From: an uncultured Clostridia bacterium
GTDB taxonomy: Bacteria > Bacillota > Clostridia > TANB77 > CAG-508
Assembly (NCBI GenBank): GCA_944388045.1
Contig: CALXHG010000003.1
Location: 8,912-72,911, forward strand
DNA length: 64,000 nt
Direction: 5' to 3'
Position numbers and translations under genes: made by a program
The notes under the pieces: generated by a model
The model's input: only the letters and a program-made list of their open reading frames with translations
What the model was told of the DNA's origin: nothing
The model's database searches: none
Shown here: piece by piece, positions 161 through 11,401 of the stretch
How the letters are laid out: each line of letters begins with the position of its first letter
Position numbering within the stretch: the stretch's first letter is position 1

Positions 161-670
161 CTATATCATCATTATAATTAGTTCTAATTGTTGACTTAAT
201 TTTTCTAATTTATTATAAAATATATATTTATTTTCTTCATTAAAATCTTTTATTTTATTAACATTAGAAATAACAATTAAATCTCTTTTCTTTTCATTTT
301 TTAAAAATTTGCATTTTTCTATAATCTCATCTGTGGTAGTCTCTGTAGTATAATTAAGATAAAGATTAGATTTAATAATATTTTTAATATTCTTTATTTT
401 TATATTATTTTGTTCTTTTGATAAATTTTTTAATTTATTTATTTCAATTTGTTTATTTATTATCATTTTTATAATTAAATTAATTGATATAATAGAATTT
501 AATATTCCTATTTTTATATTATCTTCAATTATAAATTTTGGAATAATTTTTGATAAATATTTAATTTTCTCTGCCTTTTCTTCATTATCAGTGCTTACAA
601 TTATTGAATCATAATTTTTTAATTCTAAACCATTTATTTTTTCTAAATCTTTTAATTTCTTTAAACACAT
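161..670 (-). CDS. hypothetical protein (169 aa), K/I/N-rich
   Basis: Six-frame ORF only; no recognisable motif. Lies in the accessory left flank beside the toxIN-like locus. Confidence 0.3.
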   Translation of the reverse strand: MCLKKLKDLEKINGLELKNYDSIIVSTDNEEKAEKIKYLSKIIPKFIIEDNIKIGILNSIISINLIIKMIINKQIEINKLKNLSKEQNNIKIKNIKNIIKSNLYLNYTTETTTDEIIEKCKFLKNEKKRDLIVISNVNKIKDFNEENKYIFYNKLEKLSQQLELIIMMI

Positions 671-955: not shown

Positions 956-1552
956 ATGATAACATCAAAATTAAGCAAATTAAAAAATATTTTCATTGAA
1001 GAAAATAAGAAAGGAAATGAAGTTACTCTACTTTCAAATCACGAAAGTATCTACTATGAGTTAGAAGAACATATTTCATATGTTAAATCCATAGAAGATT
1101 ACCCTAACAATCCCAAAATGAAAAAGGTAACTCTTTCATTTAAAAATATGGATTTAGAAACAGTAGTTTATTTAGATAAAGACATAACTGTTGGAAGTTT
1201 AGTTTCCACTATTGGCTATTGTTACATATTCGATGGTAAACTTAATTATTCTTGTAAAGGTGGTATGATTAGAATATATCAAAACATCGAAGAAATGGCA
1301 GAAATATACAGAAACAGAATGTATCATATGGGAATTACTATTGGATTAAGTACTGTAAAAGAACAAAAACCATATTCTACTAAGGCAGAGAACATTCATA
1401 AATTAGAAGATTCCGATTTCTACTATGCAATAGAAGAAAAAGGAAGTAGGGTTATAAATGAAATAGTAAACTCAATTCATAGACATCAAGAAAACAAAAT
1501 AGATATTAATTCTATTCCTGAGGAAGAAATACCAGAAGATGTTGCTATATAG
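956..1552 (+). CDS. hypothetical protein (198 aa)
   Basis: ORF preceded by a strong RBS (AAGGAGGATTTCAAC ATG). No recognisable family. Confidence 0.35.
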   Translation: MITSKLSKLKNIFIEENKKGNEVTLLSNHESIYYELEEHISYVKSIEDYPNNPKMKKVTLSFKNMDLETVVYLDKDITVGSLVSTIGYCYIFDGKLNYSCKGGMIRIYQNIEEMAEIYRNRMYHMGITIGLSTVKEQKPYSTKAENIHKLEDSDFYYAIEEKGSRVINEIVNSIHRHQENKIDINSIPEEEIPEDVAI

Positions 1553-1811
1553 TTATATTAAAATAATTATTTATAATTGGAACTACATTAATTTGTAGTT
1601 CTATTTTATTATAAAAAAAATCAAAATTCTTCCTATATATTAATAAGAAAATAATAATATCTTCAAAAAAAAATAATTAATATATATATATATATTATTT
1701 TTTAGTTACTTTGTTACTTTAAATTATTACCTTTTCTAATAATTTAAAATTTACGCACAATTCTTTTAATTTATAATAATTATTGTAAGTGTAATTAACT
1801 TTTTTTAAAAT

Positions 1812-2156
1812 TTAATTTTGGTGTTTAGAAATATAATAATATTCCTTGTATAATTTATTAGAATAATTATAATTAATTTTTTTAGCATACCTTTTAGGAA
1901 CAGGTATCATATTAGCAAACCTAATCAAACCAATATAATTATTATAATAATCATATATTCTAAAAAAAGTTTTATTCATATAATAATTCTTATGTTTTTC
2001 TTTTGGAGAATATAAAGGTAAAAAATAATCATAATTTTTATTTTTTAAATTTATTTTTAAATATGGTCTATTTTTTGTTGGTATCTTTTTATCAAATTGT
2101 CTTAAATAATTTATATATTTTGGTTCTATATAATAAAATTCTAATGGTTTTAATAT
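1812..2156 (-). pseudogene. ToxN/AbiQ-family type III toxin (endoribonuclease), frameshifted in an A8 tract
   Basis: Read by hand on the minus strand. Frame A from 2156 gives ILKPLEFYYIEPKYINYLRQFDKKIPTKNRPYLKINLK. The frame shifted at about 2041-2048 gives NKNYDYFLPLYSPKEKHKNYY... and reaches a stop at 1812-1814. Together these match ToxN/AbiQ motifs (FY.I..KYI.YL..FD.K.P and Y.APLTSPK.KH). An RBS GGAGG sits 8 nt upstream, but the start is non-ATG (ATA/ATT). The shift falls in the run atttAAAAAAAAtaaaaatt; 6 or 9 A would restore one frame. Confidence 0.5.
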
Positions 2157-2170
2157 TTTGATTACCTCCT

Positions 2171-2262
2171 TAATTTGTATATTACTTGTATATTACATTA
2201 AACTCTTTGTGTATATTACTTGTATATTACCTGTATATTATGTGTATATTACCATCTTAATT
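2171..2262 (-). ncRNA. ToxI/antiQ-like antitoxin RNA repeat array (about 2.5-3 tandem units of about 34 nt)
   Basis: Immediately upstream of the toxN-like gene on the same strand. Minus-strand reading gives repeated GTAATATACAAGTAATATACACAAAGAGTTTAAT-like units (plus-strand TGTATATTAC seen 7-8 times) and ends at the toxN RBS. This is the layout of type III toxin-antitoxin loci. Confidence 0.4.
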
Positions 2263-2320
2263 TTATTCGATTTTATTTAATCTAAATTTATCTTTTAAAT
2301 TAGTTAGAAAGGTAATAATA

Positions 2321-2605
2321 TCAATCATTTCCACTTATTTGTAAGGATTGGGAATTTATATAAAAATTGAATAAAATATAATCTTTTTTACTTTGAATTA
2401 AAATTTGAATTTCAAAATTACATGTTTTTAAAAATGATTTATATGAATTTAATATAGACTCTTTTTCTAATTGAGTTTTTAAATTAAAATTAATTGGATT
2501 TATTTTTATTATTTTAATAAATTTATTTTTCTTTATTTTAATTATACCATTTTCATAAATTTTTTCTATAGGTATCCAGTTTTGAATTGATTTAATTTTT
2601 TTCAT
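2321..2605 (-). CDS. hypothetical protein (94 aa) upstream of the toxI-like repeats
   Basis: ORF only. Same strand as toxN and directly upstream of it. Confidence 0.25.
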   Translation of the reverse strand: MKKIKSIQNWIPIEKIYENGIIKIKKNKFIKIIKINPINFNLKTQLEKESILNSYKSFLKTCNFEIQILIQSKKDYILFNFYINSQSLQISGND

Positions 2606-2639
2606 CTCCTTATTAGATTTTTATAATAATTATTAAATA

Positions 2640-3140
2640 TTCATTTATTTATTGAATTTAATAATTCTAATTATATTTTTTAATAATCAATTATTTTTTT
2701 ATTAATTATTTTTTTAATAATTAATTTTTATTATTTATTATCTAATTATTTTTTTATTTAATTAATTTGTTTTTTTATTATTTAATTATTTTTTATTTAT
2801 TTAATTTTTTTATTTTTTATTAATTAATCTTTTTATTTAATTAATTTATTTTTTTTATTATTTAATTATTTTTTTTATTAATTTTTTTATTTTTTATTAA
2901 TTAATCTTTTTATTTAATTAATTTATTTTTTTTATTATTTAATTATTTTTTTATTAATTTTTTTATTTTTTATTAATTAATTTTTTTATTTAATTAATTT
3001 ATTTTTTTATTTAATTATTTTTTATTTAATTATTTTTTTATTTAATTATTTTTTTATTTTTTATTAATTAATTTTTTTGTTTAATTAATTTATTTTATTT
3101 TTTATTATTTAATTATTTTTTAGTTGATTATTTTTCTTTT
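2640..3140. repeat. AT-only minisatellite with a roughly 78-nt higher-order period
   Basis: Direct reading: units such as attatttaattattttttttattaatttttttattttttattaattaatctttttatttaattaatttatttttttt recur 5-6 times with small variations. Essentially 100% A+T and no ORF. Confidence 0.7.
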
Positions 3141-3852
3141 TGATTTTTTAGAATATAAATATAACTTTTGAATAAAATATAATAATATATTATTTTAATT
3201 TAATAATATATTTTTCTAAAAAATATTGAATGTTTAAATTTGATATAAAAACAATTTTATTATACTATGATTTTAAATTTTGTCAAGAAAAAGTTATTGA
3301 CAAATTTCGACATAAATTTTTAATTTTTACAATTTATAAACTCAATAGTTTTATTCACTATCTTTTAAGGTTTTACAATATTTTTAATGTCAAAAAAAAA
3401 TATTTATTTTCTGTATAATAAAAAAAAATCTGCATATAATATGGTCATAAGGTTATTAATAGTTGAGTTAAGAATTATATTAGATTACAAGTTAGTTTAT
3501 TATAATTCGAACAAAGATATATATTAGTTTATTTGAGTAGATTAATATATGTCGGCGATAAGAATATATTTTGTATATGTAAGCTGTATTTTATTATATT
3601 CTTCATTTTAATTTTTACTTTAAAATTTTTATATATGGTTAAATTATATATTATATATTTGAACTAAGATTATACTTATAATATATGGGGTTATTATTAG
3701 TCCCACGTGGATGAATATAGTTTTTACTATTGTATTTATAGTCGAACAAGTGATTAATTTATGTGATATATGGTTTATTTGTATAGTAATATGCATTAGA
3801 TCAAACTGTTATGTATATTAGTTTGAGTTAAGATTATTAATAGCTTTATAGA

Positions 3853-3890
3853 TAATAGCTAAGAGATTGAGTTTTCTCTTAGCTATTAAT
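3853..3890 (-). terminator. hairpin terminator downstream of gyrB
   Basis: Stem atagctaagaga / tctcttagctat with a GAGTTT-containing loop, just past the gyrB stop on the minus strand. Confidence 0.5.
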
Positions 3891-3892
3891 TA

Positions 3893-6914
<3,022 letters not shown>

Positions 6915-8692: not shown

Positions 8693-10054
8693 CTATTGTT
8701 CACCATTTATGATAATGTTTTTCACACTTTCCACAATTAGTCTTGTGTTATTTTTTTCTTTTATTTCATTTTCAATTTTCTTACAAGCATGCATTACTGT
8801 TGAATGATCTCTATTTCCAAAATCTTCTCCTATTTTAGGATATGACATATTTGCAACTTCTCTACATAAGTACATTGCAATTTGTCTAGGAAAAGCTATT
8901 TCATTTGAACGTTTATTACTTGATAAGTCATTTTTATCAACACTAAAATATTTTGCAACAATTTCTTTTACATAATCTGATGATAATACTTTTTCATTTT
9001 CTGCTTTAAATTCATTTATGGTATTTTCTGCCAATTCAATAGATATTTGAGTATGCATTAATGAAGCTCTTGCAATCATTTTATTAAAAACACCCTCTAA
9101 TTCTCTAATATTTGATTCTATTTTTGTAGCAATATTTGCTAATATAATATCATCAACTAATATTTTTTCATCTTGAGCTTTTCTTCTTAATATTGCTAAA
9201 CGAGTTTCATAATCTGGACAAGAAATATCTGCAAGTAATCCCCATTCAAATCTGGATTTTAACCTATCTTCCAAAAGTTGTATTTCTTTTGGTGGTCTAT
9301 CGCTTGAAATAATAATTTGTTTTTTCTCTTCATACAATTCATTAAATGTATGAAAAAATTCTTCTTGAACTTGTTTTTTTCCAGCAATGAATTGTATATC
9401 ATCAATAAGTAATACATCGATTTTTCTATATTGGTTTCTAAATACTTCCATTTTATTGTCTTTTATTGCATTAATCATATGATTTGTAAATTTTTCAGAT
9501 GTTACATATAAAATTTTATAATTTCTATAATTTTTTAAGATTCTATTCCCTATTGCATGCATTAAATGAGTTTTTCCTAATCCTACACCACCATATAAAA
9601 AAAGTGGATTATATGCTTCTGAAGGTTTATCCGCAACAGCTAATGCTGCTGCTTGTGCAAATCTGTTATTATTTCCAACAACAAAAGTATCAAATGTATA
9701 TTTTGGATTTAAAATTTTATTAGAAAGTTCTATTTCTCCTTCTAATTCTTCATTTTCTGAATCTGATGGAATAACATCATCTTTCATTTCCATATTTGTT
9801 TTTTCATCATTGTAAATAATTGTTAATGATCTTTCTTTATTAGTTAAGTATTTGAAAGTGTTTATAATTAAATCTCCAAATCTTTTACCTAGAAAATTGG
9901 CATTATAGTCTGTATTTGATTTTATTGTTATTCTTTCATCATCAATAGATACTAATTTTAAAGGTAAAATCCATGTATCATATGCAATTGAGGATAATTC
10001 ATCTTTAATAAGTTCTTTAGCTTGTCTAAAAAGTTCTTCATAATCACTTTGCAT
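8693..10054 (-). CDS. dnaA: chromosomal replication initiator DnaA
   Basis: 453 aa. AAA+ Walker A GGVGLGKTHL, LLIDDIQF box, C-terminal DNA-binding helix-turn-helix. Flanked by DnaA boxes. Confidence 0.95.
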   Translation of the reverse strand: MQSDYEELFRQAKELIKDELSSIAYDTWILPLKLVSIDDERITIKSNTDYNANFLGKRFGDLIINTFKYLTNKERSLTIIYNDEKTNMEMKDDVIPSDSENEELEGEIELSNKILNPKYTFDTFVVGNNNRFAQAAALAVADKPSEAYNPLFLYGGVGLGKTHLMHAIGNRILKNYRNYKILYVTSEKFTNHMINAIKDNKMEVFRNQYRKIDVLLIDDIQFIAGKKQVQEEFFHTFNELYEEKKQIIISSDRPPKEIQLLEDRLKSRFEWGLLADISCPDYETRLAILRRKAQDEKILVDDIILANIATKIESNIRELEGVFNKMIARASLMHTQISIELAENTINEFKAENEKVLSSDYVKEIVAKYFSVDKNDLSSNKRSNEIAFPRQIAMYLCREVANMSYPKIGEDFGNRDHSTVMHACKKIENEIKEKNNTRLIVESVKNIIINGEQ

Positions 10055-10089
10055 ATCAAAAACATCCTTTCAAAATATTTATATTACAT

Positions 10090-10285
10090 AAGTTATCCAC
10101 AAAGTTATCCACAGGTGTGGATAACTTTGTAATAATTATGAAATAATCTTAGTTTTTTTTACAAACATTTATTTATTTGATTTAATTATAATGTTTGATT
10201 TTTATAAGCTTCTTTTATAATATCAAATTATTACAAAATTCGTCAATAGAATTGTGGATAATTTTTAAAAAATTGTGGATAACTT
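10090..10285. promoter_or_regulatory. DnaA-box cluster upstream of dnaA (second oriC half and dnaA promoter region)
   Basis: Perfect TTATCCACA at 10093-10101 and 10105-13. Perfect TGTGGATAA at 10116-24, 10253-61 and 10275-83. Confidence 0.8.
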
Positions 10286-10533
10286 TAAAATTTTTATAAA
10301 AAAATCTTAAATATTACAAAAATATTACAAAAAAGCTTTTGTTTTTACGTTATACTATATTTTTGTATAAAAAGCAAGAAGTTAAAGGGAAATTTTAAAA
10401 AAAATTTAAAATTTCCAAAAACTATTGACAAATGCCTATATATTGATGTATAATCGATTTACTTGTTATTTTGTAACAATAATTTCCTTATATGGAATTA
10501 ACATAAAAAGAAATAAATAGGAGGTGCAATATA

Positions 10534-10668
10534 ATGAAAAGAACATTCCAACCAAAAAATAGACAAGAAAAAAGAGAACATGGATTTATGAAAAGAATGT
10601 CAACTAGAGCTGGAAGAAATGTACTAAAAGCTAGAAGAGCAAAAGGAAGAAAAAAAATCTGTGCATAA
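10534..10668 (+). CDS. rpmH: 50S ribosomal protein L34
   Basis: Hand-translated: [53 protein letters not shown] upstream. Missing from the ORF track because it is under 60 aa. Confidence 0.9.
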
Positions 10669-10796
10669 TAATATTTTAATTTACTAAATTCTAGGATAGA
10701 AATCCTAGAATTTAAACAAATAATTGACCTTTAATGAATAAAAAACTATATACTTATTATAAGTTTATAGGTTGTGAAAGGAAAGAAAGTTAGAAA

Positions 10797-11147
10797 ATGA
10801 AAGAAACAGAAATGCTAAAAAAAAATTATGAATTTAGAAATGTTCTAACAAAAGGTCATTTTTTCATTGGAAGACAATTAAAAGTTGTTATTTTTAAAAA
10901 TAGAAAAAAATGTAAATTACTTGGAATAGCTATAAGCTCAAAAAATGGAAAAGCATACCAAAGAAATAGAGCAAAAAGATTGATAAGAGAAAGCTATAAG
11001 ATTCTTGAAGAAAAAATTGAAAATGGTTATACTATAGTAATTTTAATCAAAAATGATATTAATTTAAAAGATTTAAAATTTATTGATATATTAAATGAAT
11101 TAAAAGATACTTTAAAAAAATCTCAAATTTTATATATTAAAGATTAA
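10797..11147 (+). CDS. rnpA: RNase P protein component
   Basis: 116 aa basic protein directly after rpmH. Canonical position. Confidence 0.85.
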   Translation: MKETEMLKKNYEFRNVLTKGHFFIGRQLKVVIFKNRKKCKLLGIAISSKNGKAYQRNRAKRLIRESYKILEEKIENGYTIVILIKNDINLKDLKFIDILNELKDTLKKSQILYIKD

Positions 11148-11168
11148 TTGAAAAGGTAAAATTTAAAT

Positions 11169-11387
11169 ATGAAAAAAATATGTATTTATTTAATTGAATG
11201 GTATCAAAAACATATATCAGTATTTTTAGATGAAAAAAACATTAAATGCAAATATTACCCAACATGTTCAGAGTATACTAGACAAGCAATAATTAAATAT
11301 GGTTGTATAAAAGGAATATTTCTTGGAGGAAAAAGAATACTTAAATGTAATCCTTTTTCTAAGGGAGGATATGATCCTTTAAAATAG
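11169..11387 (+). CDS. yidD: membrane protein insertion efficiency factor YidD
   Basis: 72 aa. YYPTCSEY...GG.DP motif typical of the YidD family. Confidence 0.8.
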   Translation: MKKICIYLIEWYQKHISVFLDEKNIKCKYYPTCSEYTRQAIIKYGCIKGIFLGGKRILKCNPFSKGGYDPLK

Positions 11388-11401
11388 AAAGGGGTATAGG
11401 G

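Follow-up and report, generated by a model that had tools for sequence, protein, structure and literature searches.

ToxN and AbiQ belong to a family of RNA-cutting toxins of the phage-defence type. The ToxI repeats of Bacillus thuringiensis have a period of 34 nucleotides (nt), and antiQ consists of 2.8 repeats of 35 nt. Type III toxin–antitoxin (TA) loci of the toxIN family are described as a tandem array (31–62 nt, 1.9–5.6 copies), a terminator hairpin and then the toxin gene, while the repeats of the CptIN and TenpIN families measure 40–57 nt (PMC3401426). The active-site residues are Tyr-29, Lys-33, Thr-52, Ser-53 and Lys-55 in ToxN Pa and Ser-51 in AbiQ (PMC5086642). Here we describe a toxN gene on the minus strand of a 64-kb stretch (the window, whose positions are used as coordinates throughout) of contig CALXHG010000003.1, from the genome (about 25% GC) of an uncultured gut Clostridia bacterium. 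It is probably a ToxN/AbiQ-family gene that a nonsense mutation has turned into a pseudogene here, in a lineage where translation from AUA would be weak at best, and the repeats in front of it are not a canonical ToxI.

The coding region consists of the following parts.

1815–2153, minus strand: ToxN/AbiQ-family coding sequence, codons 2–114, including the PLYSPK active-site loop (Pfam, PADLOC and PDB matches)
1812–1814, minus strand: premature TAA stop at codon 115 of 145; CAA (Gln) in all homologs
1722–1811, minus strand: in-frame C-terminal 30 codons, now untranslated, ILKKVNYTYNNYYKLKELCVNFKLLEKVII, with family-conserved residues
1719–1721, minus strand: original TAA stop of the full-length gene

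Translation of the minus strand in three frames revealed one continuous frame from 2198 to 1700, running from the repeats through to ...SKHQN*. The open frame begins after a stop in the last repeat (TAA, 2195–2193) and ends at the TAA at 1814–1812, reading ...YTSNIQIKEVIKILKPLEFYYIEPKYINYLRQFDKKIPTKNRPYLKINLKNKNYDYFLPLYSPKEKHKNYYMNKTFFRIYDYYNNYIGLIRFANMIPVPKRYAKKINYNYSNKLYKEYYYISKHQN*. The truncated product matches Pfam PF13958 (ToxN_toxin) with E = 9e-20 and 71.9 bits over profile positions 1–119 of 159, against a cut-off of 25 bits; inclusion of the next 30 codons past the stop raises the match to E = 1.8e-25 and 90.4 bits over positions 1–155. The PADLOC AbiQ profile matches with 9e-23 and 79 bits. 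No Pfam family besides ToxN_toxin was matched, the CptN and TenpN profiles as such not being among those searched. Sequence matches in the PDB are ToxN 4ato (7e-13), 2xd0 and 7d8o, the ToxN E-values ranging from 7e-13 to 1e-10, and AbiQ 4glk. The ToxN fold, a twisted antiparallel beta core with helices around it, was assessed on the AlphaFold model of P0007, an intact homolog with 75% identity, and not on the window allele. This model (predicted local distance difference test score 88.3) gives template-modelling (TM) scores of 0.85 to 4ato, 0.80 to 7d8o, 0.79 to 2xd0, 0.83 to 4glk and 0.73 to CptN (4rmo). Together, profile, sequence and fold strongly support the assignment of the gene to the ToxN/AbiQ endoribonuclease toxin family, and an earlier note on this DNA, which had read ToxN/AbiQ motifs in a minus-strand open reading frame (ORF) here, is borne out by all of these matches. 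The protein is an uncharacterised new member of a known family. In phage, plasmid and viral collections we found only distant ToxN relatives (36% identity or less), on plasmids and in two phage records, and none in IMG/VR; the relatives in the phage and viral collections reach 31–34% identity at most.

The P-L-Y-S-P-K loop retains the catalytic Ser and Lys. This Ser (S51 of P0007) is invariant in 43 sequences and is followed two residues on by Lys or Arg. In our own reading of the alignment, the Arg of the RPY motif sits at about the position of Lys-33. ToxN Tyr-29 has no alignable equivalent in the window protein, and the position of Thr-52 is occupied by Tyr, with Phe in some relatives. The idea that the ribonuclease (RNase) is inactive on account of this Tyr was considered and dropped, the catalytic Ser being invariant; since AbiQ has Leu at the same position, we draw no conclusion from the substitution.

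The closest described relatives by family and fold are the ToxIN systems of B. thuringiensis (pAW63, 4ato), P. atrosepticum (pECA1039, 2xd0/2xdb) and E. coli (7d8o). The Ser and Lys of the P-L-x-S-P-K loop are shared with ToxN, RPY(L/V)G is shared with the B. thuringiensis protein, and the repeats stand directly upstream of the toxin gene in both cases, with a loose period in the window equal to that of B. thuringiensis ToxI. The differences are nevertheless considerable. Identity to ToxN is only 25–31%, the window gene is shorter (145 against 171–194 residues), Tyr or Phe replaces Thr-52, ATA replaces ATG, a premature stop is present, and no terminator separates repeats from gene. Whereas ToxI has pseudoknot units of 34–36 nt, the window units are 11 nt long and without pairing potential, and most close homologs of the window gene lack repeats. 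AbiQ/antiQ (L. lactis pSRQ900, 4glk) resembles the locus in the PADLOC and fold matches given above, in having a non-hydroxyl residue before the catalytic Ser (PLLS in AbiQ, PLYS in the window) and in having few upstream repeats; identity is about 24%, and AbiQ is carried on a plasmid whereas the window gene lies disabled on a chromosomal island. CptIN (Eubacterium rectale, 4rmo) and TenpIN share the general fold class and the principle of repeats before a toxin. Nearest of all is an uncharacterised ToxN-like subfamily of about 148 residues from gut Clostridia metagenome-assembled genomes (MAGs; P0001–P0039), with 60–75% full-length identity to the window protein, the same neighbourhood of gyrB, TraC/VirB4 fragments and toxN, and Gln in place of the window's premature stop. 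This subfamily has ATG and no significant repeats, whereas in the window lineage most of virB4 is gone, the start is ATA and an 11-nt array is present.

The lesion is a single C>T change that converts CAA (Gln-115) to TAA. Gln is found at this position in all 17 aligned homologs, including P0040 and P0041, which are 98–99% identical, and the full-length homologs run on past it for about 30 residues. The copies compared were near-identical loci (L001–L006 and L048–L051), a sister sub-lineage, B (L045–L047), and the wider subfamily. CAA occupies 1814–1812 in eight of the 12 other near-identical assemblies, L001–L006 among them. Against L003, a sister MAG, the window shows one mismatch in 2384 nt, namely the C>T at 1814. 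The exceptions are L048–L051, four contigs from four samples whose sequence is 99.8–100% identical and which carry the same T. Its presence in four other samples shows that TAA circulates as an allele, a minority one, and does not stem from an assembly error. The exact 55-residue product of the truncated ORF is already on record, and products with an intact C-terminus are recorded on 128 and 210 contigs.

The truncation removes the last 31 residues, Gln-115 included. This segment holds the nearly invariant I117, K120, Y125, C135, F138 and E142 (P0007 numbering) and corresponds to three helices of the P0007 model (114–126, 128–131 and 138–145). Judged from this loss, the gene is most likely dead in this genome. 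The suggestion that the toxin had been inactivated while its repeats remained was right in spirit; the cause, a CAA>TAA nonsense change, had gone unseen.

The start of the gene is also unusual.

2165–2169, minus strand: Shine–Dalgarno (SD) sequence GGAGG (in AAGGAGG)
2154–2156, minus strand: ATA codon 8 nt past the SD, the sole plausible full-length start
2193–2198, minus strand: ATG with TAA as the very next codon, in frame with the toxin, aligning codon-for-codon with the start ATG of P0054

Both the GGAGG ribosome-binding site (RBS), at 2169–2165, and the non-ATG start had been proposed before and are confirmed here. There is no ATG, GTG or TTG in frame before 1979. The window thus holds no complete toxin gene: no ATG, GTG or TTG stands behind the SD, and the frame is closed at codon 115 of 145. 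SD and ATA are invariant in 13 of 13 assemblies, the SD reading GGAGG in L001–L006 and L048–L050 and GGAGC in L051; distant homologs have ATG behind their RBS. We note that L051 thereby combines the nonsense allele with a change from GGAGG to GGAGC, which may be a further step of decay. In sub-lineage B (P0054, 159 residues; L045–L047) the SD reads GGAGAG and is likewise followed by ATA-ATA; 13 codons upstream stands an in-frame ATG that lacks an SD. Because no canonical start is present, gene callers begin P0040, P0041, P0053 and P0064 at an internal Met. Initiation at AUA in E. coli reaches about 1–2% of that at AUG (bioRxiv 10.1101/063800). We infer weak initiation at ATA for the whole lineage, which would leave even the intact alleles with very little full-length product. 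Support for ATA was also sought in further SD-ATA starts elsewhere in the window and set aside; the sole candidate (GGAGG at 55454) falls in a stretch that resembles a signal recognition particle (SRP) RNA gene.

The leader of the gene carries a repeat array, with a weak promoter-like site beyond it.

2176–2252, minus strand: direct-repeat array with six copies of GTAATATACA, found by Tandem Repeats Finder (TRF), motif count and period scan
2270–2299, minus strand: promoter-like hexamers TTTAAA/TTAAAA and TAAAAT at 17–18 nt, weak, just upstream of the repeats

The copies start at 2252, 2241, 2230, 2219, 2196 and 2185, with spacings of 11, 11, 11, 23 and 11 nt. Run on 2176–2252, TRF reports both 34 nt × 2.3 (86% matches) and 11 nt × 7; with the settings of the type III TA survey (2,7,7, minimum score 50) it reports 11 nt × 4.0 and 22 nt × 2.0, and no 34 nt. 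The period scan gives 76% identity at 34 nt, with none of 60 shuffles as good. The tandem units of about 34 nt in 2.5–3 copies that the earlier note described are thus real as repeats with a loose 34-nt period, which are however built from 11-nt sub-repeats. Counted as a 10-mer, GTAATATACA occurs six times in the array and elsewhere in the 64 kb at chance level only. The array is identical in L001–L006 and L048–L050 and in the part covered by L051 (to 2210). As it is flanked by AAATTAAGATGGTAAT and AAATTAAGGAGGTAAT, it looks like a local duplication of the leader that includes a decayed copy of the RBS. By eye, the 11-nt motif might derive from the 3′ end of virB4 (coding for ...NYTNVE...), an idea only, as sequences this AT-rich could not be aligned confidently.

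The fit to toxIN architecture is loose in period and copy number (34 nt × 2.3). No terminator is present between repeats and ORF (minus strand, 2176–2156), the last repeat abutting the SD. A search of Rfam at a permissive E-value over 1500–3300 gave no match. In nested folding the 34-nt units have a minimum free energy (MFE) of 0, and the 116-nt leader an MFE of −3.8 kcal/mol against −7.8 ± 2.2 for shuffles (z = +1.8), that is, less structure than the shuffles; repeats from the canonical loci that we retrieved for comparison fold to −3.1 and −3.9 kcal/mol, the first no better than its own shuffles. The region contains 17 promoter-like sites against a shuffle expectation of 16.6, and the site at 2298–2270 is distinguished by its position only. 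An antitoxin of the ToxI/antiQ type, as previously proposed, is thus unsupported: terminator, pairing potential and Rfam match are lacking, and most homologous loci have no repeats.

The wider comparison bears this out. Gut metagenomes and Clostridia MAGs yielded about 40 full-length homologs (144–160 residues, 59–75% identity). Across the subfamily, in about 15 distinct loci, the gene starts with ATG 28–50 nt past a VirB4-like ORF, and upstream of it we found no 24–60-nt tandem repeats comparable to those of the window outside the window's own lineage. L039 gave only a marginal signal (25 nt, 72%), and a TRF match in L036 (32 nt × 1.9) was discarded as no better than shuffles. Motifs related to the 11-nt unit do occur. 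The leaders of L008 and L015 have three copies of CGATATACA-type 11-mers (motif family GTAATAYACAA, CGATATACA), and that of sub-lineage B has four copies of GTAATACACAA at spacings of 11, 22 and 102 nt; with such irregular spacing, identical processed units cannot arise. The copies are homogeneous within each lineage, with ATATACA in the window lineage and ATACACA in sub-lineage B. Distant canonical ToxN loci have the expected arrangement: 35 nt × 2.9 followed by a G+C-rich hairpin and T run, an RBS and ATG in L018 and L020, and 36 nt × 2 followed by hairpin and T run in L023, L024 and L031. Their repeats are significant by period scan, and their hairpins were read from the sequence. The array of the window is thus a leader feature specific to its lineage, whether it arose by slippage, serves as a set of sites on the DNA or, in the most favourable case, acts as an unconventional decoy.

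The toxN segment has a history of its own. Compared with L005 and L006, whose gyrB DNA is only about 80% identical, it shows 92–96% identity over its whole length and at least about 99% inside toxN; against sub-lineage B identity is 100% over 2118–1815 and about 75% over 2185–2119. This points to a mosaic segment, recently exchanged between species or gene-converted, with breakpoints inside the locus (at about 2385 and 2119). We also observed that an identical 148-residue protein, P0015 (more than 100 contigs), stands behind two upstream contexts, either a VirB4 C-terminus or a VirB4 fragment interrupted midway (L032–L036 compared with L010, L011, L033 and L035). These contexts suggest movement or recombination of the toxN cassette separately from the genes around it. 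In a test of conserved columns, the window lineage shows six changes at 69 columns, all conservative (median 1, rank 5 of 40), a result that is not decisive.

Taken together, the data are probably best explained as follows. The locus is a chromosomal ToxN/AbiQ endoribonuclease toxin gene within the remnant of a decayed conjugative element beside gyrB. The C>T change at the Gln-115 codon has cost it three helices with conserved residues and most likely left the gene dead in this genome. Independently, the whole lineage lacks a canonical start, with a perfect SD and then ATA 8 nt on. In this lineage only, the 11-nt motif would have expanded in the mRNA leader, most simply by slippage, and the repeats would at best form a rudimentary decoy or antitoxin rather than a canonical ToxI pseudoknot array.

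Several observations weigh against this account. A strong SD at ideal spacing from the ATA is still retained. Across eight assemblies with intact alleles, neither a frameshift nor a stop interrupts the 145 codons, although these are about 80% AT, and changes at the 69 conserved columns number only six, all conservative; this absence of further decay would suit a gene in use to this day or one disabled only very recently. A repeat of 34 nt × 2.3 falls within the published toxI range of 31–62 nt × 1.9–5.6 (PMC3401426). The 11-nt motif family recurs in the leaders of sub-lineage B (four copies) and of L008 and L015 (three), which hints that the copies may be selected rather than accidental. RNAfold, moreover, is blind to pseudoknots and to protein-induced folds.

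Several of these observations would favour a live, unconventional type III TA system at the level of the lineage, with the repeats, transcribed together with the toxin, as a minimal ToxI-like antitoxin or decoy, the AUA start in place of the missing terminator as the means of keeping toxin well below antitoxin, and the window as a recent knock-out. The exact toxI position of the repeats, the strict conservation of SD and ATA, the conserved catalytic Ser and basic residues, the small excess of changes at conserved columns and the recent spread of the toxN segment between genomes that differ by about 20% in gyrB all agree with such a system. We nevertheless consider it unlikely. Beyond the want of terminator, pairing potential and Rfam match and the irregular spacing in sub-lineage B, standard TRF settings yield 11 and 22 nt and not 34 nt. 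In this subfamily, most intact homologs are entirely free of repeats, so that a tandem-repeat antitoxin is not a general requirement of the protein.

A distinctly less probable alternative takes the repeats for sites on the DNA, operator- or iteron-like and in helical phase, to which a regulator of toxN transcription encoded by the element would bind, and not for an RNA antitoxin. A spacing of 11 nt nearly matches a single helical turn, six near-identical copies are concentrated only here in 64 kb, the RNA is without structure, genes with helix-turn-helix (HTH) domains occur in the same island of relatives and, as noted, the copies are homogeneous within each lineage. Recent slippage explains this homogeneity equally well, however; a candidate protein that would bind the sites was not found, other genes of the window do not have the motif upstream, and most homologous loci are without it. 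We hold equally low expectations of a combined scheme in which the Tyr/Phe-loop subfamily of about 148 residues would be a conjugative-element RNase, normally expressed directly after virB4, that works without a tandem-repeat antitoxin and, once virB4 had been mostly deleted in the window lineage, the AUA start and a single-stranded decoy array of 11-nt units would serve as brakes.

It is very improbable that the TAA at 1814–1812 is a sequencing or assembly error in an intact gene: only one base separates the window from assemblies that otherwise agree with it, but the same base occurs in a 100% identical locus on four contigs from different samples and assemblers. The last alternative concerns one further feature.

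2041–2046, minus strand: tract of six A, in frame (codons tta-aaa-aat); 2050–2033 reads atttAAAAAAtaaaaatt

The earlier note had read a slippery tract of eight A here, placing the toxin out of frame and perhaps making it phase-variable by tract length, an idea now refuted and given practically no chance, for its only basis is the A-rich region at 2033–2050 (the 20-letter string quoted being inconsistent with its own 18-nt range), the eight A are a miscount of six, which is the very number the note had remarked would give one frame, a single frame crosses the tract without a shift, and phase variation is excluded as far as the assemblies show because the tract length is identical in 12 others, among them L004, a 1.8-Mb circular HiFi MAG.

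The surroundings of the locus fit the account of a decaying gene in a mobile-element remnant.

8693–10054, minus strand: dnaA
3893–5824: gyrB, with the toxN locus just downstream
2321–2605, minus strand: 94-residue ORF, N-terminal stub of a VirB4-like conjugation ATPase (NCBIfam CD1110-family VirB4, 5e-9)
956–1552, plus strand: 198-residue ORF, convergent, without family match
161–670, minus strand: 169-residue ORF, weak DnaB_C match (E 6e-4)

The window spans the origin region of the genome and also contains recF. Over 8693–11400, which takes in dnaA on the minus strand, GC and AT skew change sign between about 10 and 11 kb; the window thus contains the chromosomal replication origin, at a distance of about 8 kb from toxN. 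Related species keep the order dnaA-dnaN-recF-gyrB-[TraC-like, VirB4 fragments]-toxN-[DUF4314, DnaB_C, HTH ... integrase]. The 94-residue stub covers positions 2–65 of 752 of the VirB4 profile and is 48% identical to the TraC-like ORF of L034; these first 94 residues are all that the window retains of VirB4, whose gene precedes toxN in relatives. At the equivalent place relatives have truncated VirB4/TraC-like ORFs of varied length (186–443 residues), so that decay of the conjugative element beside gyrB is proceeding independently in several species. The island is the decaying remainder of an old integrated conjugative element.

The 198- and 169-residue ORFs adjoin toxN also in L001, L002 and L045–L047 and belong to one island with it; in L045 and L047 this island runs on to a phage-integrase gene, past the left edge of the window. 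The only terminator-like hairpin, at 1578–1603 (plus strand), was assigned to the convergent 198-residue gene. A conserved downstream partner, such as a protein antitoxin, was sought in the relatives; their 3′ genes are mutually non-homologous and absent from the window.

Two other features were observed. Between gyrB and the VirB4 fragment, 2638–3135 is a near-pure A+T tandem array (76 nt × 6.2 and 244 nt × 1.8), within a 2-kb composition block (2001–4000) of 13.5% GC. The equivalent array of L004 (757–2495) is far longer, with a 443-nt period × 3.4 over about 1.5 kb plus more arrays, and the window's copy may be collapsed or genuinely shorter. At about 55400–55520 (plus strand), a G+C-richer stretch with gtcaggtccgggaggaagcagc just upstream of a 558-residue ORF resembles an SRP (4.5S) RNA gene and is a candidate for one.

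The locus departs from the defining architecture of type III systems, mostly toward degeneration. Once the counting error behind the slippery tract is set aside, what remains is the common case of a defence or addiction gene decaying in an old mobile-element remnant. The subfamily to which it belongs is usually without repeat array and terminator, so that surveys requiring those features will miss it. Were the AUA start and the 11-nt decoy array indeed to act together as brakes, the lineage would have a type III-like system whose RNA antidote is of a new, unstructured kind, and toxin dosage would be controlled by translation and not by a terminator. The SD-ATA arrangement before an otherwise intact toxin ORF, present in 13 assemblies, is a candidate for a natural near-cognate start that holds a toxin at trace level. 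The CAA>TAA knock-out circulates beside the intact allele in several human- or animal-gut samples, an instance of ongoing toxin-gene loss.

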